From Minisyncoccota bacterium (lineage in GTDB: Bacteria > Patescibacteriota > Minisyncoccia > Phycocordibacterales > UBA1550): 52,276 bases of DNA. The position numbers were made by a program, and so were the translations under genes. The DNA lies in the NCBI GenBank assembly GCA_028712595.1, contig JAQTPS010000003.1, forward strand, positions 1 through 52,276, read 5' to 3'. Shown piece after piece: positions 1,459 through 45,168 of the stretch (its first letter is position 1; each line of letters begins with the position of its first letter). The notes under the pieces were generated by a model. The model ran no database searches. It was given only the letters and a program-made list of their open reading frames with translations, and was not told where the DNA came from.

Positions 1459-1529
1459 GACCTCCAGACCGTTTGGAGGTTTTGTACTTCCACTAAAAAA
1501 TAGGTTCTTTACAAAAATTCACTTAATAA

Positions 1530-3676: not shown

Positions 3677-3907
3677 ATGAAAAATACAGTTAGAGAGCTC
3701 GAGGAAGAGCTCTTGAGGGTTGTTAGAAAGTGGCGTAAGGCGCGTCGCAATGGCATCGCAGAAGGGAATTGTTATGAAGAATTTTTTCTCTTACTGCGTG
3801 CATTAAAGATGCATTCACGTCAATGGAGAAAACGAATTCCAAAAGGCGAGATTCTTACACTGGAAGCATTTCTTGGTGGAAGAAAAATTCCGTGGTTGCA
3901 AAAATAG
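3677..3907 (+). CDS. Small basic helical protein (76 aa), function unknown
   Basis: Trimmed to ATG 3677, preceded by TTTCTTTCCCCACATATCTTT. No promoter is evident, so it is probably co-transcribed with 3329-3598. Confidence 0.5.
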   Translation: MKNTVRELEEELLRVVRKWRKARRNGIAEGNCYEEFFLLLRALKMHSRQWRKRIPKGEILTLEAFLGGRKIPWLQK

Positions 3908-8594: not shown

Positions 8595-8622
8595 TTGACT
8601 TTTTAGATTACTGTGATACAAT
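8595..8622 (+). promoter_or_regulatory. Sigma70-type promoter, TTGACT-16-TACAAT (TG-extended)
   Basis: TTGACT 8595-8600 and TGATACAAT 8614-8622. A perfect DnaA-box 9-mer (TGTGGATAA, 8567-8575) lies just upstream. Confidence 0.6.
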
Positions 8623-8706
8623 GCCACTTAGATAAACGACTTACTTGCGGTTCCTTGTCAGAGTATCTTCAATAGAAATTCTTCTACTTCTTTTCTCCCA
8701 TTCAAC

Positions 8707-16836: not shown

Positions 16837-16847
16837 AAATATCGAAC

Positions 16848-17594
16848 ATGAATAACTTATCGGAAATTCTTGAAGAACAACTTAAAAAATTACCGTCAAG
16901 AGTAGTCGACTTCCTTGCATCTTCAAATTGGCAGGAGGTTCTCACGAATATTGGGATATCGTCCCGGCTATCCCCTCAAATAGTTGATGCTTTAGAAAAT
17001 GAGGTGGTGCTCGTCCTTGCAGGGCTTGTGCATCCAGACGCATTTCATGGTGAACTCGTAAGCCAAACCAAGATAGATGAAGTGACGTTAAGCGGGGTTG
17101 TTGCAGAAATAGAAGAAAAGATTTTTGAGCCGGTGCGCCCAGAACTTGTAAAGTTCTATGAGGATCAAACTGCTCTAGAAAATTCTAACGAGCAAGAGGG
17201 TGTAGAGGAGCCGAAGCAAGAAGAGCCAATAGAAGTAACGACTCAAAAAGAAGTTGTGCCCACCATTCCATCCCGTGTATGGGAAAAAGTTCCAGAGGTG
17301 GTTCCGCACAATTTGCCAATAGAAGAGGAGGTGCCACCAGCAGAAACTCCACAAATATTCGAGCGAGATATTATTCCGCAGACAATGAAGCCAGGAATGA
17401 ACGCCCAAACATCCAGCCCCTTTGAGGAAAAAATGAAAAAAGTATTCACGGGAAGACCAACACCAATGAATGACCTCGAGCTTGAAGCGCCACAAACTAC
17501 CTCCACAGAGCCAGCGTCTCCTCAAGTTGCAGAGTACCCAGCAGACCCAATGTCTCGGGCTCGCCACGATCCTTACCGCGAACCAATAGAATAA
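16848..17594 (+). CDS. Acidic Glu/Pro-rich protein (248 aa), function unknown
   Basis: Tightly packed within the T4SS-like block, 11 nt after the upstream stop. Confidence 0.75.
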   Translation: MNNLSEILEEQLKKLPSRVVDFLASSNWQEVLTNIGISSRLSPQIVDALENEVVLVLAGLVHPDAFHGELVSQTKIDEVTLSGVVAEIEEKIFEPVRPELVKFYEDQTALENSNEQEGVEEPKQEEPIEVTTQKEVVPTIPSRVWEKVPEVVPHNLPIEEEVPPAETPQIFERDIIPQTMKPGMNAQTSSPFEEKMKKVFTGRPTPMNDLELEAPQTTSTEPASPQVAEYPADPMSRARHDPYREPIE

Positions 17595-17599
17595 AAAAT

Positions 17600-18043
17600 A
17601 TGCAATTCCACGTACCACAATTCATAGACATAGAGGACAAACTTTTTGGCCCTTTCACATTCAAGCAGGGGATTTATGTCGCTGGTGGATTGGGGGCTTC
17701 GTTTGTAATTTATCGCCTTGTTCCATATCTCATTTTTTCCGCACCACTTATAGCCGGTGTCGGCATCCTTACTTGGGCTCTTGCTTTTTATCCAAAAGAG
17801 AAACTTGGTAAGCCATTCATTGAAATTCTGGAAGCCGGATTAAAATATACGCTGAAAGAAAAGCTATATACATGGAAAAAAACAACGAAAGATCCTAAAC
17901 TAGGTAAGGAGAAAGAGTTTGTTTCGGCTCAAGTTCCAGTGATGCCCTCCGTCCCAAGTGGCGCGCTCGCTTCTTATTCTCTTAAGCTTGAGCGTGGGAG
18001 GCCTCAGGTCGGTAATACGAGCGACAATAAAACTACTCTATAA
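17600..18043 (+). CDS. PrgI/VirB3-like small membrane protein
   Basis: The N-terminus VPQFIDIEDKLFGPFTFKQGIYVAGG is followed by two TM helices, the pattern of Gram-positive PrgI-family T4SS proteins. Confidence 0.65.
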   Translation: MQFHVPQFIDIEDKLFGPFTFKQGIYVAGGLGASFVIYRLVPYLIFSAPLIAGVGILTWALAFYPKEKLGKPFIEILEAGLKYTLKEKLYTWKKTTKDPKLGKEKEFVSAQVPVMPSVPSGALASYSLKLERGRPQVGNTSDNKTTL

Positions 18044-18045
18044 TT

Positions 18046-18705
18046 ATGGCTATCAAATCAAAAGCGGCACAAGATTTTGTTCCGATAAAAGAAATCCGAG
18101 ACGGAGTCCTCATTTTGAAGGACGGCACTATGCGTATGGTGCTTATGGTTTCGTCCATAAACCTTGCGCTCAAATCCGGAGACGAGCAACAAGCCGTGCT
18201 TATGCAATTCCAAAATTTTTTGAACTCGCTGGAATTTTCTACTCAAATATTTATTCAGTCCAGACGACTTGATATTCGTCCATATCTCTCGCGGCTAGAA
18301 GAGCGTCTAAAAGAAGAAATGAACGAGCTTTTGAAAATTCAGATTTTTGAATACATTGGTTTCATAAAAGCTGTCACTACTTCGACAAATATTATGAATA
18401 AGCTTTTCTTGGTTGTTGTACCTTATTCACCGCCAAGACCAGTTACTGCAGATGCTCCAAAAACTTCTGGAATTGGGGGCTTTTTCGGTAAAAAAACCGA
18501 AAACGCAGACCCTGTTTTGACACAAAGCGCCATTGATGCTTTCGAAGAGGCGCGTTCGCAATTAGAGCAACGTTCCGGAATTGTGCGACAAGGCCTGTCG
18601 CGCACTGGTGTTCATATTCTCACACTCGGGAACGAAGAGCTTACGGAACTTTTCTATCATCTCTTTAATCCAGGAGAGGAACAGAAGCAAGCTGTGGTAA
18701 AATAG
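18046..18705 (+). CDS. Protein resembling the N-terminal domain of VirB4/TrsE-type ATPases (219 aa, no NTPase motifs)
   Basis: AQDFVPIKEIRDGVLILKDGTMRMVLMVSSINLALKS...QIFIQSRRLDIRPYL resembles the start of Gram-positive VirB4 homologues. Confidence 0.5.
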   Translation: MAIKSKAAQDFVPIKEIRDGVLILKDGTMRMVLMVSSINLALKSGDEQQAVLMQFQNFLNSLEFSTQIFIQSRRLDIRPYLSRLEERLKEEMNELLKIQIFEYIGFIKAVTTSTNIMNKLFLVVVPYSPPRPVTADAPKTSGIGGFFGKKTENADPVLTQSAIDAFEEARSQLEQRSGIVRQGLSRTGVHILTLGNEELTELFYHLFNPGEEQKQAVVK

Positions 18706-18715
18706 AAGCAGTATC

Positions 18716-18776
18716 TACCGCGGGCAGAGCCCGCCACAAGGAGAAACCTCCTTGTGCACGACAGAGTCGTGCGGTA
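18716..18776 (+). ncRNA. Cloverleaf-like structured element in the intergenic region upstream of virB4
   Basis: The closing stem TACCG/CGGTA encloses three hairpins: CGGGC-AGA-GCCCG, CACAAGGAG-AAAC-CTCCTTGTG and CACGAC-AGA-GTCGTG. Confidence 0.4.
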
Positions 18777-18861
18777 TCATACTCTTATATTAGCCTCCTC
18801 GGCTCGAAAATAAAAATGAGTACATTCTTATTTCCCTCGCTCTACGTCGCAAATAAATAAT

Positions 18862-20685
18862 ATGTTTGACTTTTTTAGCAAAAAAACTGACGCATCTATG
18901 GGGAAAAATACGGTCCCTGTGCTTCCTCAAGAACTTTACAGCGACAAAGGTCTAAACCTTGCTGATGTGATTGCTCCCTCCGCTGTCAAAGTAAATGCAA
19001 AGTTCCTAAATATCGGCGAAAAGGTAGTGCGTTCATTTTTTGTCACTTCGTATCCAAGCACACTTTCCGACAACTGGCTGTCACCACTCATTAACCTCGA
19101 CAAAGTTTTTGATATTGCGATATATGTTCACCCCGTCGACACGGCAGCTATAATGAAAAAGTTTGAGCGTAAAGTTGCGGAGGTACAAAGCCAGATTAAC
19201 ACCCGCGAACAAAAAGGATTCGTCCGCGACCCAATGCTCGAAACCGCATACCGCGACCTCGAGGAGCTTCGTGACCGACTCCAGCAAGTTCAAGAAAAAA
19301 TGTTTGATGTTGGACTATATATTTCACTCTATGCAGATTCCGAAGTAGAGCTTTCAAAAGCGGAAGCAGAAATCAAATCAATGCTTGAGTCCCGACTCAT
19401 TTATGTTCGACCCGCCCTCTTTCAACAAGAAGAAGCGTTCCAAAGTATTATTCCAGTCAACCAAGACCAGCTTCTCGTCACAAAGAAAATTAATTCCGAG
19501 CCGTTGTCGAGCTTTTTCCCATTCGTATCGTTTGACCTCACTTCAGATAGGGGAATTCTCTACGGCATCAACCGCCACAACTCATCTCTCATTTTATTTG
19601 ATAGATTTTCTCTTGAAAACTACAACTCTGTCACGTTTGCAAAGTCGGGCTCTGGAAAATCATACGCGACAAAGCTGGAAATTCTCCGCAGTTTGATGTT
19701 CGATGTTGACGTAATCGTGATTGACCCTGAAAGGGAATACGAATCAATGGCATCAGCAGTAGGTGGACGCTATTTCAATATTTCTCTCAACTCCGAGCAC
19801 CACATAAACCCATTTGACCTCCCAATTCCACGAGAAGATGAGTCGTCTGCGGATGTTCTTCGGGCAAACATTATCGCCCTTGTTGGACTTTTCCGAATAA
19901 TGCTAGGAGGTCTCTCGCCAGAAGAAGATGCTCTCGTAGACCGCGCCATTGCCGAAACATATGCGCTCAAAGACATCACGCCGGATTCTGATTTTTCTGC
20001 AATCGAAGCTCCTCTTCTTTCAGATTTCGAAATGGTGCTAGCAGGAATGAAGGGAACTGAAAATATTTTAGTAAAACTTACAAAATACACTCGTGGTTCT
20101 TGGTCAGGATTCATCAACCAGCCGTCCAACGTCGATATCAACCGCAAGTTTATTGTGTTTTCCGTACGCGATATGGAAGACGATTTGAAGCCTGTTGCAA
20201 TGTACCTAGTAACTCACTTTATCTGGAATGCAATACGACGCACACTCCGAAAACGCCTTCTCGTAGTCGATGAGGCATGGTGGATGATGAAGTCCGAAGA
20301 TACGGCAGCTTTCCTTTACTCGCTTGCAAAACGAGGACGCAAGTATTTCCTCGGCATCGCAACAATCACACAAGACGTTGACGACTTTTTGAAATCTCCT
20401 TACGGACGACCTATTATCACCAACTCCTCCATTCAAATTCTTCTCAAGCAATCCCCAACAGCAATCGCAGCGCTTCAAGATGCATTCACGCTGACCGACG
20501 AAGAAAAATATTTACTTCTTGAGTCCGGAGTAGGGGAGGGTATCTTTTTTGCCGGAGTAAAACACGCTGCTATTCGCGTCATTGCTTCATATACTGAAGA
20601 TCAAATTATTACTTCAGACCCATCTCAACTTTTGGCCATCAAAAAAGCAAAACGAGAACTAGTGGATGCAGAAGGAAGGGCGTAA
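18862..20685 (+). CDS. virB4: VirB4/TraC/TrsE-family type IV secretion ATPase
   Basis: Walker A KSGSGKSY, Walker B RLLVVDEAWWMM, and 607 aa with a VirB4-like N-domain. Confidence 0.88.
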   Translation: MFDFFSKKTDASMGKNTVPVLPQELYSDKGLNLADVIAPSAVKVNAKFLNIGEKVVRSFFVTSYPSTLSDNWLSPLINLDKVFDIAIYVHPVDTAAIMKKFERKVAEVQSQINTREQKGFVRDPMLETAYRDLEELRDRLQQVQEKMFDVGLYISLYADSEVELSKAEAEIKSMLESRLIYVRPALFQQEEAFQSIIPVNQDQLLVTKKINSEPLSSFFPFVSFDLTSDRGILYGINRHNSSLILFDRFSLENYNSVTFAKSGSGKSYATKLEILRSLMFDVDVIVIDPEREYESMASAVGGRYFNISLNSEHHINPFDLPIPREDESSADVLRANIIALVGLFRIMLGGLSPEEDALVDRAIAETYALKDITPDSDFSAIEAPLLSDFEMVLAGMKGTENILVKLTKYTRGSWSGFINQPSNVDINRKFIVFSVRDMEDDLKPVAMYLVTHFIWNAIRRTLRKRLLVVDEAWWMMKSEDTAAFLYSLAKRGRKYFLGIATITQDVDDFLKSPYGRPIITNSSIQILLKQSPTAIAALQDAFTLTDEEKYLLLESGVGEGIFFAGVKHAAIRVIASYTEDQIITSDPSQLLAIKKAKRELVDAEGRA

Positions 20686-20743
20686 TATTAGCGTTCTTCG
20701 GTTTTGTCTTTCACATTCTATAATAATGCGATACAATAATCCT

Positions 20744-21760
20744 ATGAAGAAGCTTTGCACTTTTTTGTTCCTCGCTTTTGCAACTATTCCATTTTTTGTC
20801 TTTGCACAGGGGCTTCCCATAGATGCTTCGTCTTCTGGCTCTCTTGTTCTACAGTCAGTTCCTGCGGCTCCACTTCCTAAAGAGATGGTCACTGTTGTTT
20901 TGTCAGGCCCTGGAATCAACCTGCGAGATGCAACCATAACTTGGTCTATTAACGACAAGGTTGTAGGGATGGGTGTTGGCAAGACAACTTTTTCTTTTAA
21001 AAACGGGGGGTCAGAAGAGACGACAGACATTGTAGCTTCAGTTCTTTTAAATACGGGGGAAGTTTTGAGCAAAAAAATTTCGTTTACACCAGCAGGGTTC
21101 AGTCTACTCTGGGAAGCAAGTACTTATACGCCCCCTTTCTACAAAGGAAAGGCGACAATGACGCCAGAGGCAAATATGCGCGTGTTGGTAGTGCCAGACA
21201 ATTCAAGTACTGCTGACAGAATAGATCCGAGCACGCTTATGTACACATGGCGAAAAGATGGAACTACTCTCCCCGACAATTCAGATTACGGTAAAAACTC
21301 TTTTTCATTTACAGCCCCAAAGCTCGGATATCCTGCCGATATTCAAGTTCAATTGGTTTCACCAGACAGTACTATTGATCAAGGATATGGAATTAAACTT
21401 TCGCCCGGAGTTCCTTTTGTGCTTTTGTATGAAGATGTTCCATTGTTGGGGGTTTGGTACAACAATGCCTTTGGAAATACCGTTACGCTTGACAGGAAAG
21501 AGTTCTCGATTAGCGCCGAACCGTATTTTTTCCCAAGCGAGACGGGGCTAACACCTAACGTTACCTATAGTTGGGCTCTTGATGGAAAACTGCTTCAAGA
21601 AGCTAGTCGTTTTATAACATTTCGCAACGAAACTGAAGAAAAAGTAGATTCTAAATTAAACCTATCGGTCCAAAGCAAAAACAAAGGCTCACAAACAGCT
21701 ACTAGATCTCTTGTGATCCGCTCCGCCGACATCCAATCGTCCGGTTCTTTTATGTATTAA
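20744..21760 (+). CDS. Secreted protein (338 aa), function unknown
   Basis: Trimmed to ATG 20744. Signal peptide MKKLCTFLFLAFATIPFFVFAQG. TACAAT lies 6 nt upstream of the ATG. Confidence 0.75.
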   Translation: MKKLCTFLFLAFATIPFFVFAQGLPIDASSSGSLVLQSVPAAPLPKEMVTVVLSGPGINLRDATITWSINDKVVGMGVGKTTFSFKNGGSEETTDIVASVLLNTGEVLSKKISFTPAGFSLLWEASTYTPPFYKGKATMTPEANMRVLVVPDNSSTADRIDPSTLMYTWRKDGTTLPDNSDYGKNSFSFTAPKLGYPADIQVQLVSPDSTIDQGYGIKLSPGVPFVLLYEDVPLLGVWYNNAFGNTVTLDRKEFSISAEPYFFPSETGLTPNVTYSWALDGKLLQEASRFITFRNETEEKVDSKLNLSVQSKNKGSQTATRSLVIRSADIQSSGSFMY

Positions 21761-21775
21761 CATATTTTTTGTATT

Positions 21776-22897
21776 ATGAAATATATTTCCAAAATTTTAG
21801 CAACCTTAGTTCTTGTTTTTTTAATAACACTCATATCACATATTGCTTTTGCTGACCAAACGCCATTATCATACACTCCGCTCACCACGCTTCCGGGAAT
21901 TACCAAAGAGGGGATAGCTTCTAGTGGTGTTCATAACTACCTCTCGGGGGTGTTTGCCTTGGTTATTGCTCTTGCGGGCGCCCTTGCTGTTTTAATTCTT
22001 GTTGTTGGGGGCGTCCAATATGTGGCCTCTGGAATTACGCCAGACCAAAAAGGCCGAGCAAAGGAGCGTATTAAAAATGCCCTTATTGGACTTGCCCTCA
22101 TCTTGGGCTCTTGGTTAATATTAAATTCAATAAACCCCGCTCTTAAGAGCCCTGCCCTTCAAAGCCTTCCTCCGGTTGGTGTAGAAGCGAGCCTGCAGGC
22201 AATTAAAGACCAGCAGGCCATGAACGAGAAAATTCTCAAGGATTTTGCGGATTTTGCTAAGGAGCAGGCGGATTTTGAAGCATCCGCAGGGCAGCAACAG
22301 AACTTCGTTCCAAGTTATACCGAGAGAACAGGACCTGGAGTAGCTGGGTATGTTTCTCCAGTTCCATCTTCCGGCAATTGCCTTACCCAACCTTTTGGGT
22401 ATACGTCTTACGCCCTCGAATCTGGTATTTATCCTAAAAATTTCCACGATGGAATTGATTTTGGTGTAGGGTCAGGAACGGAAATAAAATCAATAGCAAA
22501 TGGAGAAGTTGTGTATACAGGAAATTGTGGAGATAAAACATTTGGAAAATGGGTTTATATTAAACACGACGACCCCCTCGGAACGTCGGCTTTGTATGCC
22601 CACCTCAAAGACAACAGTATCCCTGTGGGAACCAAGGTGGCTGCTGGGCAGAAAATTGCCCTAAGTGGCAACAGTGGTCCACCAGGAATGGGTTCTCATC
22701 TCCACGCGACTCTATTCAACTCTAGTGCTGTTGGGTTTGGTAGTCCTTCGTGTGGACCAAACTTTCCTCGCGCGTCATACCCAAAAACAAACCCAATAAG
22801 CGCGGAGTATACTGGATATTTAGACATGGAAAAATACCTTGGTGGCCCCCTTACTATGTGTATCAACTCACGCACCGGTAGTCCGTTTGCTAGGTAA
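21776..22897 (+). CDS. Fusion of a TrbC/VirB2-like T4SS pilin module with an M23 peptidase domain
   Basis: Signal peptide, then two hydrophobic helices separated by GGVQYVASGITPDQKGRAKERIKNA (VirB2-type layout). C-terminal M23 motifs FHDGIDF and GSHLHATLF. Confidence 0.7.
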   Translation: MKYISKILATLVLVFLITLISHIAFADQTPLSYTPLTTLPGITKEGIASSGVHNYLSGVFALVIALAGALAVLILVVGGVQYVASGITPDQKGRAKERIKNALIGLALILGSWLILNSINPALKSPALQSLPPVGVEASLQAIKDQQAMNEKILKDFADFAKEQADFEASAGQQQNFVPSYTERTGPGVAGYVSPVPSSGNCLTQPFGYTSYALESGIYPKNFHDGIDFGVGSGTEIKSIANGEVVYTGNCGDKTFGKWVYIKHDDPLGTSALYAHLKDNSIPVGTKVAAGQKIALSGNSGPPGMGSHLHATLFNSSAVGFGSPSCGPNFPRASYPKTNPISAEYTGYLDMEKYLGGPLTMCINSRTGSPFAR

Positions 22898-39570: not shown

Positions 39571-39599
39571 TTGACTTATATCACTTTTTGTGCTATCTT
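39571..39599 (+). promoter_or_regulatory. Sigma70-type promoter, TTGACT-17-TATCTT (TGC-extended)
   Basis: TTGACT 39571-39576 and TGCTATCTT 39591-39599. Confidence 0.55.
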
Positions 39600-39655
39600 T
39601 GTCCTTAGTTGTACAAACACTGCCATTTGGCAGATTCATACCCACATACATACTT

Positions 39656-40147
39656 ATGCGTACGGTTATTTTCTCCACCGGCCTTTTTGTAGCCATTGGG
39701 CTTTCTTTCTCTCTCCCCGTAGTGGCACATGCTACAGGCGGAGAAAGCATTTCTGTTTACGACACAAAGAGCAGAGCGGAAGAAGGAATTCGTCGATGCA
39801 CCCTGACCGTGAAGGTCCCGCTTTCCAAGCTCTCGCTTGCCGAGAAGCCATCGCAGAACATTGCGGTGACCATCGCCGCGAAAGACGGCGTTACTCCCAA
39901 ATGGGTGACTATACTAATCGATGGAAAAATGTTCCGCGCCCGCCCCTTTTGGGAATGGCACCGGTTCCATCTCTCTCCTTCGGACAGAAGGATTGTTGTC
40001 GAGGTCTCTGACGTGCTCAAGGGTTACAAGCCCTCACGGCGACAGAAGAACCTTGAGGTCTCCATTCAATTGGAGCTAAGCGACGGCGCCAGCATCGAGG
40101 GTTTTGATAACCTGAAGATTCTGGATTACCGAAGCCTCGAGAATTGA
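39656..40147 (+). CDS. Secreted protein (163 aa), function unknown
   Basis: Trimmed to ATG 39656. Signal peptide MRTVIFSTGLFVAIGLSFSLPVVAHA. Confidence 0.7.
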   Translation: MRTVIFSTGLFVAIGLSFSLPVVAHATGGESISVYDTKSRAEEGIRRCTLTVKVPLSKLSLAEKPSQNIAVTIAAKDGVTPKWVTILIDGKMFRARPFWEWHRFHLSPSDRRIVVEVSDVLKGYKPSRRQKNLEVSIQLELSDGASIEGFDNLKILDYRSLEN

Positions 40148-40192
40148 TAAATTTGGCACTCGCGTAGTCATGTAGTAAGAAAATATCAAAAC

Positions 40193-40294
40193 ACCCAAGC
40201 GGGGTTCAAATAGTACGAAGGGTATACAAAAACAAAAACACTTAGCGAGCTTGGTCCGTTAGGTGTTTTTTTATTTGCCACCACCCCGCTGGGT
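40193..40294. repeat. Short or degenerate copy C of the inverted-repeat element
   Basis: ACCCAAGCGGGG ... CCACCACCCCGCTGGGT encloses a terminator hairpin (AACAC.../...GTGTTTTTTT). Confidence 0.45.
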
Positions 40295-40307
40295 TTGTTT
40301 GCCTCCA

Positions 40308-40335
40308 TTGACTTTTCTGTGTTTTATGCTAAAAA
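40308..40335 (+). promoter_or_regulatory. Sigma70-type promoter, TTGACT-16-TAAAAA (TGC-extended)
   Basis: TTGACT 40308-40313 and TGCTAAAAA 40327-40335. Confidence 0.55.
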
Positions 40336-40393
40336 GAAAGCCGGCTAACACAAGTTCTTTACAACTCTTTTTCACTTCTTTCCCCAATACTCT

Positions 40394-41284
40394 ATGCCTT
40401 TAAGTAAATCTGACAAGGTTTTTCTCTTTGTTGGAGCAATTCTTGTGGTGTTGTTCTTCGCAGTCTTGGTTTTGTTTAAGTTTGGTGTTGTCGGCGCAAA
40501 AGCAGCGACTCTTGCCCAAGATTCCAAAGCAAATACAGGCGCAGGCGCGCTTTTGGTTGCCGACACAGAGTCGAGCGACCCGTTGTTCTCAAAAAGTTCT
40601 TCTGGCTCGTTCCCAGAATACATAAAAGTTACACATACTTGTAACTGGGAATGGGTCGGAGATTGTGTTATCGCAAGAACCGGTCCGGGCGACGAATACC
40701 CACATGTGACGCTTCTTAATGAAGCAGGAAGACTTAGAAATGGAGCATCATTCCATGTACTTGCATCGGCAAAAGCAAAGGATGACTCCACTTGGTATCA
40801 GTTGGAGGTTTCATCTGCATACGGGCGAATCGTAAGCAAATGGTATGTTAGAGCCGACCAAGTTGAAGAAAAGATATACTCCAGAATAGATCCTGAAAAT
40901 GACGACATAAAAAATATCAGAGTAAATATTGGAGAACAAGCAATCTATTTTTTGGAAGGGGACAACCTTATAAAGTCCTCGCTCATCTCAACAGGAAGAA
41001 ACGACAGTACCCCGCGAGGACAGTTCTACATATCAAAGAAATATCCAGTTAGACTTATGGAGAATCTTCCTAAAAAAGGAGGTCTGCCGTATACATATTT
41101 TGTTCCGGATGCTCAGCAATTTTCTTCGACGTCAGAAGGATATGGTTACTATTTGCATGCGGCGCTTTGGCACAATGATTTTGGAAAGACATATTCTCAT
41201 GGATGCATTAACCTGCCTCCTGATGTTGCCGAATGGGCTTACGACTGGACATCTGGAAGTGGAACCTCCGTGTTCATTAAGTAA
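40394..41284 (+). CDS. L,D-transpeptidase (YkuD domain) with an N-terminal anchor and SH3-like domain
   Basis: Catalytic signature YYLHAALWHNDFGKTYSHGCINL. TM anchor. The pyrimidine box CTTCTTTCCCCAATACTCT precedes the ATG. Confidence 0.85.
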   Translation: MPLSKSDKVFLFVGAILVVLFFAVLVLFKFGVVGAKAATLAQDSKANTGAGALLVADTESSDPLFSKSSSGSFPEYIKVTHTCNWEWVGDCVIARTGPGDEYPHVTLLNEAGRLRNGASFHVLASAKAKDDSTWYQLEVSSAYGRIVSKWYVRADQVEEKIYSRIDPENDDIKNIRVNIGEQAIYFLEGDNLIKSSLISTGRNDSTPRGQFYISKKYPVRLMENLPKKGGLPYTYFVPDAQQFSSTSEGYGYYLHAALWHNDFGKTYSHGCINLPPDVAEWAYDWTSGSGTSVFIK

Positions 41285-41306
41285 TCAAGGAGGAAGAGGA
41301 GAAGCA

Positions 41307-41341
41307 GGGCCGGCGTACCACGGATACGTCGGCCCTTTTTG
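41307..41341 (+). terminator. Intrinsic terminator
   Basis: GGGCCGGCGTA / TACGTCGGCCC stem followed by TTTTTG. Confidence 0.7.
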
Positions 41342-41349
41342 ATATTGCA

Positions 41350-41378
41350 TTGAACATTTTTAATAGGTGTGGTAGAAC
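41350..41378 (+). promoter_or_regulatory. Promoter TTGAAC-17-TAGAAC
   Basis: TTGAAC 41350-41355 and TAGAAC 41373-41378. Confidence 0.4.
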
Positions 41379-41416
41379 GAATCCAGAAGTTCTTCTATTT
41401 TCTCCCCACATTTCGT

Positions 41417-41890
41417 ATGACAACAACTCAAGATGTCGCTACTTGTACTGACGATGAATTTTCTATAATTTTAGCAGAGCTCAAAGACCCCGGAGACGCC
41501 CCGAATCTTTTGAGAGAAGCTTATGGAAACAAAAATCGTCAGTCGCGGATTCTTAAAAGGTGGAACAAACTCTCACACATTGAGTTATCCAAGGCTCCTT
41601 TAGAGAGAGGGCCACTGATAAGAGTTTTTGATAGGTGTCCTCCCGTAGGCACATCGCGAGAAGCTACTAAGGAAAAAATAAACGAGGTGGCATGGCGAAG
41701 TGCCAACAACGCAGACGGCCAACAACAGGGAGCATCTGTTAGGAATATGCCTGGAAGTAGGCAAGCCGGAAACGCGAGCCCTCCAAACAGCGCATCCTAT
41801 CCGCCACTCTGGTTTTATTTGTTGTGCGTCGTGGCGATTGTCGCATTTGCCCTTTTTGTTAAGGCACTTGTTGGGTGGAACTTGCGTTAA
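41417..41890 (+). CDS. Tail-anchored membrane protein (157 aa), function unknown
   Basis: Trimmed to ATG 41417, preceded by TTTTCTCCCCACATTTCGT. A single C-terminal TM helix, LWFYLLCVVAIVAFALFV. Confidence 0.6.
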   Translation: MTTTQDVATCTDDEFSIILAELKDPGDAPNLLREAYGNKNRQSRILKRWNKLSHIELSKAPLERGPLIRVFDRCPPVGTSREATKEKINEVAWRSANNADGQQQGASVRNMPGSRQAGNASPPNSASYPPLWFYLLCVVAIVAFALFVKALVGWNLR

Positions 41891-41911
41891 CTTGTGCCAA
41901 GAACAAAGTAA

Positions 41912-41945
41912 TAGCCACTCCTTCACACGTGGGGTGGCTTTTTCT
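41912..41945 (+). terminator. Intrinsic terminator
   Basis: AGCCACTCC / GGGGTGGCT stem followed by TTTTTC. Confidence 0.6.
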
Positions 41946-41952
41946 ATACCCG

Positions 41953-41980
41953 TTGACATTTTATAGTTTCGTGGTATTTA
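41953..41980 (+). promoter_or_regulatory. Sigma70-type promoter, TTGACA-16-TATTTA
   Basis: TTGACA 41953-41958 and TGGTATTTA 41972-41980. Confidence 0.5.
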
Positions 41981-42028
41981 TGTAGGTAAGCGAACTGTTC
42001 TTTACTTCTTTCTTTCCCCCCATTTTCT

Positions 42029-42217
42029 ATGGCGCACCCTGATGGTCCAGAAGTTTGCCCCTCTTGTATCGCTGGTCGGCGCGAAGCTCCCAGTCCCGCT
42101 GTGAGTAAAATGCGACAAGAATCTTTGTTGAACGCTACGAGAAAATGGGAGGCGCGCAAATTTCAACAAACAAAAGAAAGACAGGAATGCATAAAGCGTA
42201 AGTGCGGAGTACGCTAA
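42029..42217 (+). CDS. Small basic Cys-containing protein (62 aa), function unknown
   Basis: ATG is preceded by CTTTCTTTCCCCCCATTTTCT. A CPSC pair sits near the N-terminus and C..KC near the C-terminus. Confidence 0.5.
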   Translation: MAHPDGPEVCPSCIAGRREAPSPAVSKMRQESLLNATRKWEARKFQQTKERQECIKRKCGVR

Positions 42218-42238
42218 TCAAAGCAGGGAATCATCGGC

Positions 42239-42281
42239 AGGACCGGACAACACAGTTTACTGTGAAGTCCGGTCTTTTTTG
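42239..42281 (+). terminator. Intrinsic terminator
   Basis: AGGACCGGAC / GTCCGGTCT stem followed by TTTTTT. Confidence 0.7.
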
Positions 42282-42287
42282 TATCAC

Positions 42288-42315
42288 TTGACTTTTTATA
42301 TTCTTGTGGTATTTT
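42288..42315 (+). promoter_or_regulatory. Sigma70-type promoter, TTGACT-16-TATTTT
   Basis: TTGACT 42288-42293 and TGGTATTTT 42307-42315. Confidence 0.5.
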
Positions 42316-42358
42316 TGCAAACAAGTAGTCCTTTTTATTCATTTCCCCTTATCTTACT

Positions 42359-42640
42359 ATGGTCGCAATAGATGGAACTGGAACTAGTTCGTCGGCAAAC
42401 CCAAATGCTCAACATCCCGATATTGCAAGACTCGAAAGGGAATGGCAGTTCAGAAAGAAAAAGATGTGGGGCACGATAAGGATGATCGCATGGATATTAT
42501 TTGCGGTCTTTACCTTAACCGCATTGCCGGCCGCCCTACTTCTTGGGGCAGCAGTGCACTCTGTGGTGCCGATTCTGATAGTCCTTGGGATTATCGGGGT
42601 TTGTGTCTGGAGATTTGTGGTCAACTACAGAAATAACTAA
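42359..42640 (+). CDS. Small two-TM membrane protein (93 aa), function unknown
   Basis: ATG is preceded by TTCATTTCCCCTTATCTTACT. Two hydrophobic helices. Confidence 0.6.
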   Translation: MVAIDGTGTSSSANPNAQHPDIARLEREWQFRKKKMWGTIRMIAWILFAVFTLTALPAALLLGAAVHSVVPILIVLGIIGVCVWRFVVNYRNN

Positions 42641-42658
42641 CAAGATTGCCACAACCAT

Positions 42659-42691
42659 CAACACCCTATTCATAGAATAGGGTGTTTTTTG
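42659..42691 (+). terminator. Intrinsic terminator
   Basis: ACACCCTATTC / GAATAGGGTGT stem followed by TTTTTT. Confidence 0.75.
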
Positions 42692-42697
42692 TACCTA

Positions 42698-42725
42698 TTG
42701 ACATTTTTGTTGATTATGATACAGT
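42698..42725 (+). promoter_or_regulatory. Sigma70-type promoter, TTGACA-16-TACAGT (TG-extended)
   Basis: TTGACA 42698-42703 and TGATACAGT 42717-42725. Confidence 0.5.
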
Positions 42726-42762
42726 TCTAGTCAGATAAAGACCTTTGCAAATTCGTTCGAAG

Positions 42763-42815
42763 TTCGCCAAAGCCAAGAGAAGCTTGATAGATAAGCTTTT
42801 GCTGGCTTTGGCGAA
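42763..42815 (+). promoter_or_regulatory. Conserved leader hairpin, copy 4 (variant)
   Basis: TTCGCCAAAGCCAAGAGAAGCTTGA-TAGA-TAAGCTTTTGCTGGCTTTGGCGAA. Same architecture as copies 1-3, with compensatory ATGC>AAGC / GCAT>GCTT changes. Confidence 0.55.
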
Positions 42816-42869
42816 TAGGCACTTATGTCTCCACCGAAGCGCATATTTACTTCCTTCCCCAATACAAAT

Positions 42870-43349
42870 ATGCAAACACAAATTCTTGCCTGGCTCTTCA
42901 AAGACCGTGGCATAGTTGTTAAATGGTTTTCTGCCCTGACTACCACACTTTCAAAAATGTTTGACCTCGTGGCCACTACATTTTCAAAAGTGTCTGAGTT
43001 GGCTTGGTGGGCACTGGCCTTGGCGCTTGTCGTTCTGACCGGCGTGGCAACATTTTCTCTCTACGTTGGCGCAGCCGTCGTCGGCATATTGCTAATCGTG
43101 CTCGTAGCTACTGCCAAATCGGGACTCGGAATGATTCAGACTCTCGGAGGGGCAATAAGCAACGCGGGACACAACAGCGATTTCGCCAGCGCGGATGATA
43201 TTTCTTCGGACGACGAAGAAGTTCCGCTCGAAGACAATGCCGACGCGAACGATGATGAAATAGACGACGAACCAAATGATGGTATGCGACGTGCCGCCGA
43301 AAGGGGAGCACTCGCTGCCGGATTTAGAAGTCGTCGGATTTCTAGATAA
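42870..43349 (+). CDS. Membrane protein with an acidic C-terminal tail (159 aa), function unknown
   Basis: Trimmed to ATG 42870, preceded by ACTTCCTTCCCCAATACAAAT. Two TM helices and a DDISSDDEEVPLEDNADANDDEIDDEPND tail. Confidence 0.6.
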   Translation: MQTQILAWLFKDRGIVVKWFSALTTTLSKMFDLVATTFSKVSELAWWALALALVVLTGVATFSLYVGAAVVGILLIVLVATAKSGLGMIQTLGGAISNAGHNSDFASADDISSDDEEVPLEDNADANDDEIDDEPNDGMRRAAERGALAAGFRSRRISR

Positions 43350-43367
43350 CTTCAAAAAATTGTGCTT

Positions 43368-43405
43368 CAGGGACCTCGCTTCGGCTTGGTCCCTTTCTGT
43401 TTTTA
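43368..43405 (+). terminator. Intrinsic terminator
   Basis: AGGGACC / GGTCCCT stem followed by TTCTGTTTTT. Confidence 0.55.
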
Positions 43406-43409
43406 CCCC

Positions 43410-43437
43410 TTGACATTTCCTGTATATATGCTATACT
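43410..43437 (+). promoter_or_regulatory. Sigma70-type promoter, TTGACA-16-TATACT (TGC-extended)
   Basis: TTGACA 43410-43415 and TGCTATACT 43429-43437. Confidence 0.6.
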
Positions 43438-43491
43438 CTTAATAGTTAGTCAAAAAGCTCTTTTATTTCCTACCTTTTCCAAACAAACAGT

Positions 43492-43818
43492 ATGGAAAAC
43501 ACACAAAAAGTCGTTCTTGCTGTTTTAATTCCAGCGAGCTGCGTTTCTTCATTTATTCTTGGAGTATTCACAGACTCAAACGAATTTCTCAGTATGGCGA
43601 TACTTCTTTCTCTCCTTACTTTTCTCATCGCTTGCTCGACTGCGCAAATAGTCGAGGCGGTCTCGAAGATTGTGAAATTGGTGAAAGCAAAAATTCACCT
43701 TTCCAAGATCGTCAAAAGAATTCAAGCGATGAACCCAGAGTACCAAGAATGCCTCGAAGTTATGGAGGCAAGAAAAGCAAATTACGCTGTTTATTGGAAA
43801 ATGTTGAGTCAAATCTGA
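43492..43818 (+). CDS. Small two-TM membrane protein (108 aa), function unknown
   Basis: Own promoter and terminator. Two N-terminal hydrophobic helices and a basic helical C-terminus. Confidence 0.6.
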   Translation: MENTQKVVLAVLIPASCVSSFILGVFTDSNEFLSMAILLSLLTFLIACSTAQIVEAVSKIVKLVKAKIHLSKIVKRIQAMNPEYQECLEVMEARKANYAVYWKMLSQI

Positions 43819-43854
43819 TTCACATATCAACCGATAACGGCAATACAAAAACAA

Positions 43855-43887
43855 AAAGACCATACACCGAGGTGTTGGTCTTTTTTC
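43855..43887 (+). terminator. Intrinsic terminator
   Basis: AAAGACCA...TGGTCTTTTTT with inner ACACC/GGTGT pairing. Confidence 0.7.
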
Positions 43888-43975
43888 ATATCAGCTCAAT
43901 TCTTTTTCTTGGCTTGCTTCGCCTGTAATGAACCAATGCGCGCCAACGTCTTTTAGGGAAGAGAGAATTAACCCC

Positions 43976-44004
43976 TTGACTTTTTCTTGGGAGTATGCTA
44001 CACT
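43976..44004 (+). promoter_or_regulatory. Sigma70-type promoter, TTGACT-17-TACACT (TGC-extended)
   Basis: TTGACT 43976-43981 and TGCTACACT 43996-44004. Confidence 0.55.
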
Positions 44005-44043
44005 AGCACTTAGATAAGTTAAATATGCTCTTTGAAGTTTTGT

Positions 44044-44113
44044 GGGCTCGTCATAGCCAAAAGATGCTTAATTAGAGCTTGAAATATAGGCATTTGTTGG
44101 CTATGACGACGCC
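44044..44113 (+). promoter_or_regulatory. Conserved leader hairpin, copy 5
   Basis: GGGCTCGTCATAGCCAAAAGATGCTTAA...TAGGCATTTGTTGGCTATGACGACGCC. Confidence 0.65.
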
Positions 44114-44194
44114 ACCTAAACCCTCCGGGTTTTCGTCTCCATAGTATTGGAAGAAGATATTCTTTCCTTTCCCTCAAATTTTCCCCCCAATCCT

Positions 44195-44923
44195 ATGGCA
44201 AACGATAACCCAGTGGTCCTTCATTTGAATCGCAAGTTGGTAAAATTCTTTGTATGGATTGTCGCGATTGCGATAATCCTTTGGCTCCTTTGGCCCTTCT
44301 TTAAGGTCATCTGTGTGAAGTACAAAGGAGAGCTAACTATCGGAGTCAATACTCCGTGCGTTAATTGCGAAGTGAAGAAAGAAGAGCCGAAGCCACAAAA
44401 AAAGACCTATCCTGCTAAGCAGGTAGCATCTCAACCAGCACCAGCTCCTGTGCCAGAGGAGCCAACTTGGTTCGGTAGCCCCATTCCTCTTCCTGTGGTT
44501 GTGAAGAAGCTGGAACCGGTACGAACATATCGACGATATGTTCCGCCCTATAGGCCTTCTTATCCATACAGACCGCCCTACCGTGAGCCCGAAATTGTGC
44601 AACGGTTTTACGATACGACCATTCATAATGGACCGTACCAACCATCGGCGCAACCGGCATCAACGTCGACTACTGTGAATGTGCAGCAGACAACGGTTAT
44701 AAGCAACACCATCTCTGCACAACCAACACAGCCGACGCCGGCACAACAGCCTCCAGTAGGGATTACAAACAACGGGTCTACAGGGAATCCAAACACCGCA
44801 GTTGGAGCTAGTGGAATTACGAACGGAGCAACTACGGGAACGTCACAGCCCCCAGCGGGAATTACGGGTCAAGGAAATGGTTCAACCGCGAACCAAAATG
44901 GTAGTTGGACATTCCACGAGTAA
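44195..44923 (+). CDS. N-terminally anchored Pro/Thr/Gln-rich protein (242 aa), function unknown
   Basis: The track TTG start 44147 was trimmed to ATG 44195, preceded by TTTTCCCCCCAATCCT. TM anchor FFVWIVAIAIILWLLWPFF. YRPSYPYRPPYREP repeats. Confidence 0.65.
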   Translation: MANDNPVVLHLNRKLVKFFVWIVAIAIILWLLWPFFKVICVKYKGELTIGVNTPCVNCEVKKEEPKPQKKTYPAKQVASQPAPAPVPEEPTWFGSPIPLPVVVKKLEPVRTYRRYVPPYRPSYPYRPPYREPEIVQRFYDTTIHNGPYQPSAQPASTSTTVNVQQTTVISNTISAQPTQPTPAQQPPVGITNNGSTGNPNTAVGASGITNGATTGTSQPPAGITGQGNGSTANQNGSWTFHE

Positions 44924-44938
44924 CTTTACGGGAAAAGG

Positions 44939-44978
44939 CAAGTAGTCGATTAAGCCTAGAAACTTAATCGACTACTTG
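44939..44978 (+). terminator. Perfect 16-bp stem-loop after the 44195-44923 ORF (no adjacent U-run)
   Basis: CAAGTAGTCGATTAAG-CCTAGAAA-CTTAATCGACTACTTG. Confidence 0.45.
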
Positions 44979-45002
44979 ACCCGCTCCTGTATTTTTTAAA
45001 GT

Positions 45003-45020
45003 TATGAACCATGGTTCATA
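45003..45020. promoter_or_regulatory. 18-bp perfect palindrome, candidate operator
   Basis: TATGAACCATGGTTCATA, flanked by partially symmetric TTTTTAAA/TTTAAAAA, 28 nt upstream of the -35 at 45048. Confidence 0.4.
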
Positions 45021-45047
45021 GTTTTAAAAAGTAAATTTAAGCAGCAC

Positions 45048-45075
45048 TTGACTAAATTTACATTTGTGATATAAT
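45048..45075 (+). promoter_or_regulatory. Consensus promoter TTGACT-16-TATAAT (TG-extended)
   Basis: TTGACT 45048-45053 and TGATATAAT 45067-45075. Confidence 0.65.
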
Positions 45076-45168
45076 ATAACTTATAGTTATTAGATATCAA
45101 ATTTGTTCTTTATTAGCAACATTATTAGCAATTATCAAAAACCCCCGCTATGCGGGACCAAAAATTAT

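Follow-up and report, generated by a model that had tools for sequence, protein, structure and literature searches.

BoxA, an RNA element of rRNA operon leaders and of the nut sites of phage lambda, is also carried by the leaders of CRISPR arrays. Diversity-generating retroelements (DGRs) are especially abundant in bacteria of the candidate phyla radiation (CPR), and we know of nothing on how the variable-protein genes of CPR DGRs are expressed. The BoxA consensus GYTCTTTAANA is gamma-proteobacterial (PMC5725501). NusB-NusE reads 8 nt of BoxA, where G2, C5 and U6 are critical and position 9 is a purine, and the double-stranded RNA (dsRNA)-binding surface of NusB-NusE is contiguous with the BoxA site (PMC3177189). 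At suhB, the effect of BoxA on Rho termination and on translation is context-dependent (PMC5725501), and in the LoaP systems a near-identical RNA hairpin in several leaders is the handle of an elongation factor (PMC12691694). We examined a leader module, a BoxA-like box followed by a long conserved hairpin, that occurs five times within a 52,276-bp contig of a Minisyncoccota bacterium (JAQTPS010000003.1, assembly GCA_028712595.1; the whole contig is called the window). The module is a conserved, previously uncatalogued leader RNA of Patescibacteria and a strong candidate for a new RNA family.

Three of the five hairpins (copies 1-3) lie close to the start of the window and two (copies 4 and 5) lie some 40 kb away. 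Matches to the 5' arm at three or fewer mismatches numbered 6 in the window against 0.32 expected, and 0 of 100 shuffles reached 6, excluding chance as their source. The five hairpins form 22-29-bp helices with folding energies between -26 and -40 kcal/mol (z from -5.7 to -6.9). A covariance model made from the five copies recovered exactly those five within the window, all on the + strand, at 65-85 bits; read on the - strand, these five sites gave 32-46 bits, and 22 bits was the highest score elsewhere in the window. The proteins encoded behind the five copies, three of them soluble and Cys-rich (86, 107 and 134 aa) and two of them membrane proteins (159 and 242 aa), are unrelated to each other and none has a Pfam family.

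Further members were retrieved with degenerate two-arm fixed patterns applied to both strands, a procedure by which the diversity of the family is underestimated. The scan of species-representative genomes gave nine CPR loci (Saccharibacteria, Nomura-, Taylor- and Falkowbacteria, and one further bacterium) along with one unrelated terminator in a Hungatella metagenome-assembled genome (MAG); the metagenome contig scan gave 45 more loci, and two scans of viral contigs gave no match to either pattern. The total is about 50 non-redundant copies from Saccharibacteria, Nomura-, Taylor-, Falkow- and Yonathbacteria-like genomes, every one of them on the sense strand (50/50), in a 5' untranslated region (UTR), between a sigma70-type promoter and a start codon. 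The initial annotation of the window had read the hairpin as a regulon-type cis element dispersed to a second locus, a reading at odds with a motif confined to this genome or placed at random with respect to gene starts and strand. Copies were found in relatives and beyond, in the sense orientation and in promoter-to-start placement, so the element is a dispersed cis-acting leader and not a local tandem duplication; that part of the claim holds, and the single shared trans-acting factor implied by a regulon would be a further step. The hairpin itself is real, and the annotation had seen part of the element, which comprises the BoxA-like box together with the hairpin and which elsewhere is found mainly on DGR targets. 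Rfam release 15 gave no match, by gathering threshold or E-value, on the window or on the leaders of 7 related loci, and the sole Rfam similarities over the hairpins were to generic miRNA-precursor models, and weak. Literature combining DGRs with BoxA or antitermination, or CPR bacteria with structured RNAs, yielded nothing describing the module, and a large DGR survey leaves promoters, leaders and stem-loops upstream of target genes unmentioned. The case for a new family is thus one of about 50 members, 11 covarying pairs and no match in these Rfam searches.

Pairing was assessed in a sense-strand alignment (A3) of 50 non-redundant copies. Paired cells amounted to 91%, compared with 29-50% when the 3' partners were slid by 1-3 columns. 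Compensatory changes, on both sides of the pair, were present at 11 of the 24 pairs, and 0 of 500 shuffles reached the observed values; pair 21-58 occurs as UA 19, GC 13, UG 6, AU 5, GU 3 and CG 1, and pair 5-74 as GC 28, CG 11, AU 8 and GU 3. Where pairs were not fixed by the search patterns, 24 of 32 non-Watson-Crick cells (75%) were G.U or U.G, against an expectation of about 17% for a DNA palindrome (wobbles being C.A mismatches on the opposite strand), and under the covariance model the sense strand outscored the antisense strand at every copy compared. Given strong covariation and a majority of wobbles among the non-Watson-Crick cells, the element is an RNA structure and not a DNA palindrome. 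In the hairpin of about 24 bp the core, CAU-AGCCA-AA-AGAKGCUUA / UAGGCMUUU-YY-UGGCU-AUG, is near-invariant, with the reservation that its never-varying positions were fixed by the search patterns, so that core conservation is overstated and the invariance is partly by construction. The basal stem covaries, and independent tests are provided by what the patterns left unconstrained, namely the 8-bp basal stem, the free positions and the orientation. The core includes fixed G.U pairs and a weak spot formed by a tandem A.C (or A-U/A.G); the apical loop varies freely (4-27 nt, a range seen within one genome), and about 40 of the 50 copies are inverted repeats with a 4-bp centre. The sense-strand leader hairpin is under purifying selection for pairing.

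The triplet that follows the 3' arm (columns 69-71 of A3, unconstrained by the patterns) reads AUG in 43 of the 50 copies, while three have GUG and one has UUG; in the window it is TTG in copy 4 (42808-42810) and ATG in copy 5 (44103-44105). The AUG could be a sequestered start codon, or it could be part of a recognised helix. A conserved upstream open reading frame (ORF) running from it was rejected: frame and length vary (3-260 codons), and agreement with the frame of the main ORF is at about the chance level.

The second part of the module is a single-stranded BoxA-like box, GYTCTTTR (GYUCUUUR in the RNA; short form GUUCUUUGA in the leaders), located 5' of the hairpin at a gap of 7-17 nt, with three leaders deviating. 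Matches to GYTCTTTRANA at 10 or more of 11 positions were found in the 32-nt window 5' of the hairpin for 36 of 51 leaders, compared with 0.6% of shuffles. From the box to the AGCC of the hairpin the distance is 15-25 nt in all but three leaders (17-22 nt in the five window copies, with unrelated spacers); the three exceptions contain an extra 27 nt that form a self-contained mini-hairpin. The distance between box and promoter varies, from about +1 in DGR-type leaders to about +45 in copies 2 and 3. As the spacing to the hairpin is fixed and the promoter distance variable, the box is positioned relative to the hairpin and not to the promoter. Its place is always 3' of the -10 hexamer and 5' of the hairpin. 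The minimum free energy (MFE) folds of the full leaders leave it unpaired in copies 1, 4 and 5 and partly paired in copies 2 and 3. Scored against GYTCTTTRANA, the boxes of copies 2, 3 and 5 match at 10/11, copy 1 at 9/11 and copy 4 at 8/11. The CPR box retains the features of BoxA that are critical for NusB-NusE, and the rRNA BoxA of Gram-positive bacteria, UGUUCUUUGAAAA, is even closer to it. The likeness is one of sequence and position only, by which the box would be a putative BoxA.

The mini-hairpin, CCCAGTAGGYRATTNTGYTRAATC, lies between box and hairpin in the leaders of loci L002, L004 and L052; it is also present upstream of the DGR template repeat (TR) in L002, and thus looks like a small portable RNA module. 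The window further contains strong extended -10 promoters that lack the hairpin and are followed by a BoxA-like GYTCTTT box, within 343-471, 8595-8706, 40354-40393, 42288-42358, 43410-43491 and 45048-45116 (boxes AGTTCTTTCC, GGTTCCTTGTCA, GTTCTTTACAA, GTCCTTTTTAT, GCTCTTTTATT and TGTTCTTTATTA), in most cases with a pyrimidine tract and ATG thereafter. Because the box follows these hairpin-less promoters, it is a general leader feature and the hairpin is an add-on module.

Outside the window lineage the module almost always heads the genes of DGR variable proteins, an association perhaps inflated if the leaders retrieved go back to a single cassette type that spreads horizontally. In 13 loci the leader is followed by a gene of about 180-250 aa whose terminal segment recurs about 480 bp further downstream, and the mismatches between the two copies, the variable repeat (VR) and the TR, were all or nearly all at TR adenines (18/18, 16/16, 15/15 and 14/14, the lowest being 12/14). 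This adenine-specific pattern, with the second copy as TR, is the DGR signature. A DGR-type reverse transcriptase (RT; motif LGNLTSQ) was present in 8 loci, and RT or Avd in 9. The leader-linked proteins that clustered by BLAST numbered 36, and both DGR targets in L042 carry the hairpin. In a Yonathbacteria MAG (L057, PolA 79%), the hairpin at 18267-18331 directly precedes a 201-aa gene that is followed by bAvd and RT. Many hairpin carriers are without RT or TR within 5-12 kb. The complete cassette consists of the target stop codon, an intrinsic terminator overlapping an extended -10, a conserved RNA, the TR and a second terminator; with the target gene closed off in this way, there is no obvious need for the leader in read-through into TR-RT.

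In the cassettes of L002, L003, L008 and L032 the target terminator overlaps an extended -10, TGnTAAAAT, and a structured-looking conserved RNA lies 5' of the TR. A hairpin with U-run follows the TR, a run of 6-10 G stands just before the RT start codon, and the approximately 400 nt after the TR probably encode Avd on the opposite strand. Pairing or sequence repetition between the hairpin and the DGR cassette was rejected, the longest common words being 7-9 nt against a shuffle mean of about 8.5 (9 cassettes). In the metagenomic contig L017 a class A bacterial RNase P RNA (246-803, - strand, 113.5 bits) was located just upstream of the DGR-target leader, which is probably coincidental.

When the loci were laid in register, the conserved leader region proved far larger than the hairpin alone. 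The common promoter type is TTGACA-17-TGTATAAT, and the conserved order is promoter; AGTTCTTTGATA; (ACTTGCGA); GGTCAT-AGCCAAAAGAKGCTTA-loop-TAGGCMTTTCCTGGCT-ATGACC; ACGGCTCATAGTTCCTCCTCGGATTAGAGGAAAA; a small hairpin abutting the Shine-Dalgarno (SD) sequence; ATG. RNAalifold of 17 leaders gave three helices, where P1 is the family hairpin, P2 is a small invariant helix and P3 covaries by eye (GCCC/GGGC, GCGC/GCGC, GGGC/GCCC, ACGC/GCGT). A distance of 45-110 nt separates the hairpin from the start codon, and the ribosome-binding region is left free. In the window as in the DGR loci the units are monocistronic (promoter, leader, gene, terminator). The stretch from hairpin to ATG in the window lineage is 31% C, 8% G and 41% T, compared with 21/22/27 (C/G/T) for the window, and such a C-rich, G-poor composition matches the description of rut sites.

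The features of the five window copies and of the copy-4 and copy-5 units (window 42660-43405 and 43976-44923) are as follows.

991-1066, + strand: copy 1, box GTTCATTCACA (991-1001) and hairpin (1015-1066).
1504-1592, + strand: copy 2, box GTTCTTTACAA (1504-1514) and hairpin (1530-1592).
2113-2210, + strand: copy 3, box GTTCTTTGTAA (2113-2123) and hairpin (2131-2210).
42660-42691, + strand: intrinsic terminator of the preceding unit (gene 42359-42640), a 12-bp stem AACACCCTATTC/GAATAGGGTGTT followed by a T-run, directly before the copy-4 promoter.
42698-42725, + strand: copy-4 promoter, TTGACA-16-TACAGT with extended TG, kept in the ortholog L056.
42740-42750, + strand: copy-4 BoxA-like box GACCTTTGCAA, 8/11 against GYTCTTTRANA, 20 nt 5' of AGCC.
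42762-42816, + strand: copy-4 hairpin (P1), basal stem GTTCGCCAA/TTGGCGAAT, core AGCCAAGAGAAGCTTGA/TAAGCTTTTGCTGGCT, short loop.
42846-42869, + strand: copy-4 pyrimidine-rich, G-poor tract (TTTACTTCCTTCCCC...) abutting the start codon, without an SD sequence.
42870-43349, + strand: copy-4 gene, a 159-aa protein with two transmembrane (TM)-like segments by hydropathy and an acidic C-terminal half.
43370-43405, + strand: terminator-like hairpin GGGACC...GGTCCC followed by TTTCTGTTTTT, ending the copy-4 unit; read from the sequence and unlisted by a simple terminator scan.
43976-44004, + strand: copy-5 promoter, TTGACT-17-TACACT with extended TG, kept in L020/L056.
44027-44037, + strand: copy-5 BoxA-like box GCTCTTTGAAG, 10/11 against the consensus, 17 nt 5' of AGCC, unpaired in the full-leader MFE fold.
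44042-44115, + strand: copy-5 hairpin (P1), outer GTGG/CCAC, basal stem CTCGTCAT/ATGACGAC(G), exact core, 16-nt apical loop.
44160-44194, + strand: copy-5 pyrimidine-rich, G-poor tract TTCTTTCCTTTCCCTCAAATTTTCCCCCCAATCCT abutting ATG.
44195-44923, + strand: copy-5 gene, encoding 242 aa with a single TM-like segment near the N-terminus and a tail rich in P/Q/T/N, without a Pfam family.

The initial annotation had described copy 5 as the exact core on a new basal stem and copy 4 as a variant with retained pairing, and both descriptions were borne out. The copy-5 core arms (AGCCAAAAGATGCTTAA at 44055-44071, TAGGCATTTGTTGGCT at 44087-44102) contain 0 mismatches, and the basal stem CTCGTCAT/ATGACGAC is unlike those of copies 1-3; the hairpin folds at -37.7 kcal/mol (z = -6.9, dinucleotide shuffles) and scores 85.1 bits with the covariance model. 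The copy-4 core arms are AGCCAAGAGAAGCTTGA (42771-42787) and TAAGCTTTTGCTGGCT (42792-42807); within the ATGC/GCAT block a U-A pair was turned to A-U, giving AAGCTT/AAGCTT with the pairing intact, and this hairpin folds at -34.4 kcal/mol (z = -6.3, dinucleotide shuffles; 70.5 bits). The order promoter, hairpin, pyrimidine tract and ATG that had been proposed for both copies is as observed, with extended -10 promoters and C/T-rich tracts, and hydropathy agrees with the assignment of the downstream genes to membrane proteins (two TM-like segments for copy 4, one for copy 5). The copy-4 box is unpaired in the full-leader MFE fold. The start of the copy-4 ORF is ambiguous, with an alternative in-frame ATG at 42825; its protein has no Pfam family and matched only itself among 5.8 billion proteins, and so is a strict ORFan.

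Copy 1 was the only window copy with a convincing terminator-like hairpin (1058-1081, TATAGCGA...TCGCTATA) followed by T6AT8, in a region extending to 1095; this structure re-uses the 3' arm of the leader hairpin (p = 0.011 against shuffles), and the copy-1 leader alone may represent a genuine attenuator. Copies 2 and 3 (window 1459-1503 and 2068-2112) and a copy of the closest relative (L045, about 3700-3745) have an extra 5' hairpin GACCTCCAG...TTGGAGGTT right after the -10, as well as a CTAAAAAAYAG stretch 5' of the box; because both are common to them, these three leaders are paralogous for about 120 nt of their length.

The window is a cellular chromosome contig encoding PolA, UvrD, PBP1, PilB and a ComM-like ATPase, as well as KsgA, YidC, DnaA, DnaN, a class-I tRNA synthetase, RuvB, TsaE and HolA. 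It spans the origin region yidC(-)/dnaA/dnaN (24327-28870) and a type IV secretion system (T4SS)-like cluster (14206-22897) with VirB6/TrbL-like, PrgI-like and VirB4/TraG-like parts and a T4SS-pilin domain fused to an M23 peptidase. By homology search the window PolA is 91% identical to that of the closest relative (a 583-kb metagenomic contig) and 76-80% identical to those of MAGs named Candidatus Yonathbacteria or Parcubacteria group; judged from these identities, the organism is a Yonathbacteria-like member of the Patescibacteria (CPR). No tRNA or tmRNA gene was found in the window, no rRNA operon was found in the window or in the 7 related loci scanned, and tblastn detected no reverse transcriptase on the contig. 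A phage origin was rejected, as the window is a cellular contig and neither search pattern matches viral contigs. SD sequences are nearly absent in the sub-lineage, an SD-like motif preceding 2/33 genes in the window and 1/19 in L056; among the Yonathbacteria-like relatives L057-L059 it precedes 16/65 genes. A C-rich pyrimidine motif (YUUCCCC-like) was seen about 8-14 nt 5' of the ATG for 7/33 window genes, these being promoter-proximal, against 0/65 in L057-L059. The loss of SD together with the C-rich motif looks like a lineage-specific change of the translation-initiation signal.

The closest relative contains three pattern-matching copies (L020, L027 and L045). Both copies 4 and 5 have counterparts in its syntenic PilB-...-DUF11-TsaE-PolA region, at L056 5081-5143 and 6657-6733. 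The copy-4 ortholog scores 52.3 bits; like the L057 copy, it deviates from the search pattern and was found by the covariance model only. Promoter, GTCAGATAAA start region, box (GACTTTGCAAAT in L056) and hairpin are kept between the copy-4 orthologs, and the sequences are unalignable 3' of the hairpin; the hairpins differ by two compensatory pair changes (A-U to U-A and A-U to G-C). The L056 leader drives another gene, an uncalled 84-aa ORF with two TM segments, and the ortholog of the window copy-4 protein (L056 5577-5984, 35% identity by BLAST) lies further down behind a hairpin-less promoter of its own. The copy-5 ortholog (L020 866-942 = L056 6657-6733) retains the promoter, identical stems and the CCATAGTATTGGAA block, its loop and flanks have diverged, and the protein encoded behind it in L020/L056 is about 32% identical to the window copy-5 protein. 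The syntenic island of the more distant relatives L057-L059 contained no hairpin. The interval from PilB to a DUF11/CLIPPER-domain gene is a hot spot of gene turnover (window 39571-45100, L056 2857-7761 and the syntenic regions of L057-L059), where 2-6 small ORFans, most of them membrane proteins, are each served by a separate promoter and terminator, in a set that differs per relative. In the simplest history, the module was ancestral on DGR targets, was copied to other leaders in the sub-lineage and has been selected while the cargo turns over. The window lineage supports the portability of the module, which is re-used there on unrelated orphan genes, with partner genes swapped between close relatives.

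We tentatively favor the possibility, by analogy, that the module is a nut-like site for co-transcriptional loading on the nascent RNA. NusB-NusE(S10) would bind the box, and the helix next to it would be contacted by the NusB-NusE dsRNA surface or by a dedicated hairpin factor, as for lambda N/boxB or LoaP and the dfn hairpin. Tethered to the RNA, this complex would modify the polymerase during elongation and so protect it against premature termination, where Rho acting on a long C-rich, G-poor untranslated leader would be the obvious threat in a lineage without SD. Alternatively, its effect would be on the initiation of translation, which at suhB is tuned by the Nus complex. In either case a common handle would place the DGR variable-protein genes of most CPR lineages and the fast-turnover ORFan or membrane genes of the window lineage under one control. 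The more ambitious version, a lineage-specific nut-like system in which box, hairpin and hairpin-binding factor would define a regulon of "contingency" genes gated at elongation or coupling, we regard as rather unlikely; if true, the expression of hypervariable surface and interaction proteins would be gated at transcription elongation or coupling.

Several observations weigh against a nut-like site. The units are short, monocistronic and self-terminated, and therefore have no obvious long untranslated stretch or internal terminator for antitermination to act upon; a convincing terminator-like hairpin in the leader is confined to copy 1. The box also follows at least 6 hairpin-less promoters in the window and thus does not need the hairpin. 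The copy-4 (8/11) and copy-1 (9/11) boxes match poorly, and the hairpin is unlike both the lambda boxB (5-bp stem, pentaloop) and the LoaP UNCG hairpin. Among 40 window ORFs scanned there was no Nus gene, NusG paralog or KOW domain, N-like protein, RNase III or evident RNA-binding regulator. Lastly, the fixed spacing of box and hairpin in the DGR-type leaders could be due in part to common descent or cassette transfer.

The same separability of box and hairpin would fit a different reading, somewhat improbable in our estimate, in which the hairpin is the operator of a dedicated RNA-binding regulator of translation or decay and the box is an independent general leader feature. The regulator would be a conserved CPR protein that distinguishes the helix by its A.C weak spot, G.U pairs and CAU/AUG base, and it would act on every mRNA with the hairpin. 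The occurrence of the box without the hairpin in at least 6 window leaders, the hairpin being on a subset of leaders, agrees with this, as do two arms conserved in sequence across several CPR phyla around a free apical loop, and a start-codon-like triplet at the 3' base of the helix (AUG in 43/50, GUG/UUG in 4 more). However, at 45-110 nt from the start codon the hairpin is clear of the ribosome-binding region, an independent box leaves unexplained why box-hairpin spacing is kept despite unrelated spacers, the scan of 40 window ORFs gave no candidate protein, and the identity across phyla may come from transfer of DGR cassettes. Conservation of the arms bears also on whether the hairpin is a site for RNase III or another dsRNA endonuclease, cleavage near the A.C weak spot removing the box and setting mRNA stability or translatability. 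Substrates of such enzymes normally need less conservation of primary sequence, and re-pairing of the 3' arm with a downstream segment after cleavage was not significant, so that we consider this explanation distinctly unlikely even though the helix has at least two turns (22-29 bp, where RNase III substrates have at least about 20 bp of dsRNA), its weak spot is at a fixed position, its loop is irrelevant, and the only, weak, Rfam similarities were to generic miRNA-precursor models. The processing stems of T7 early mRNAs and of rRNA are similar, and in rRNA operons they also come after BoxA. The pairing potential of the 3' arm was evaluated as well for a classical attenuator, with the basal stem as antiterminator against a downstream terminator that re-uses this arm. 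Copies 1 and 2 at first seemed good candidates for such a switch. The copy-1 segment 1058-1081 re-uses the arm (p = 0.011), and strong alternative helices (-13 to -15 kcal/mol) are available to one DGR subfamily (ATGACTAC type), but across 50 leaders the native complementarity averaged -9.8 kcal/mol, where shuffled leaders gave -7.7 and cross-paired leaders -8.6. For the window lineage the mean z was -1.2 against a decoy value of -0.5, with copy 1 alone significant and copies 2, 3 and 5 not significant, and a U-run is absent from the leaders of copies 4 and 5 and from DGR-type leaders. Attenuation as the general mechanism is largely refuted by this lack of significance, both family-wide and in the window lineage, and is very doubtful.

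The inverted repeat with its 4-bp centre in about 40 of 50 copies, and the change of partner genes between close relatives, would also be expected if the element acted as DNA, be it as the palindromic operator of a dimeric repressor (acting as a roadblock between +40 and +80) or as a selfish repeat of the miniature inverted-repeat transposable element (MITE) or repetitive extragenic palindromic (REP) type. This is the least probable of the explanations considered: the loop ranges over 4-27 nt within one genome, 75% of the non-Watson-Crick cells are wobbles, which are meaningless in duplex DNA, the basal stems differ among the copies of one genome and yet remain complementary, and the 50/50 sense orientation is contrary to the insertion in either orientation of MITE/REP elements. 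Nearly as improbable is a role specific to the DGR, where the hairpin would bind Avd or RT, or would pair with the TR RNA, and so link target expression to mutagenic retrohoming. Nearly all copies outside the window lineage do head DGR-type variable proteins, RT or Avd is present in 9 loci, mismatches at TR adenines occur in 13, and both targets in L042 carry the hairpin. Against this, known DGR cis elements lie 3' of VR (PMC3240598), no segment of the hairpin is repeated or complementary within 9 cassettes beyond chance, neither RT nor TR lies within 5-12 kb of many carriers, and the window carriers are five unrelated ORFans on a contig without RT. A nut-like loading site remains our tentative preference. 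Whichever reading applies, a leader conserved in sequence and structure across several CPR phyla offers a handle for finding the regulator of DGR targets, and it is possibly a first case of BoxA/Nus-type control tied to hypervariable genes.

Compared with described systems, the module most resembles the nut site or rrn leader, or the LoaP leader hairpin, yet it lacks the defining features of the boxB and LoaP hairpins. With the lambda nut sites and rrn leaders it has in common a single-stranded, BoxA-fitting box near the transcript 5' end and a hairpin within about 10 nt. It differs in that the hairpin is of 24 bp (22-29), conserved in sequence and closed by a loop of 4-27 nt, whereas boxB has about 5 bp and a GNRA-like pentaloop, and in that the module lies on short monocistronic mRNAs and not on rRNA or long phage operons, and is without a known N-like protein. 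The likeness to nut is limited to the order and spacing of box and hairpin, and a dependence on Nus factors would be putative. LoaP (dfn/mln) is similar in the repetition of a hairpin across the leaders of several transcription units, but there the hairpin is small and of the UNCG type, a NusA-dependent terminator comes after it in the leader, and the operons are very long; copies 4 and 5 are without a leader terminator, and the 40 window ORFs scanned include no NusG paralog. As with the BoxA of suhB, the box is found in the 5' UTR of ordinary genes and overlaps pyrimidine-rich, G-poor, rut-like sequence. The suhB and CRISPR leaders, in contrast, have no conserved partner hairpin, and the suhB BoxA is within about 50 nt of the start codon, whereas the module box is 150-170 nt away when the hairpin is present. 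The RNase III stems of T7 early mRNAs and pre-rRNA are like the hairpin in having a helix of at least two turns with an internal weak spot, placed between promoter or BoxA and the functional RNA; the arms of the module are unusually conserved in sequence, and its cleavage would be putative. The DGR cis elements (the initiation of mutagenic homing (IMH) sequence, the hairpin 3' of VR and the TR RNA) differ from the module, which is in the 5' UTR of the target gene, is unrelated in sequence to TR and VR and is also on non-DGR genes; they resemble it in that both occur in the same CPR cassettes.

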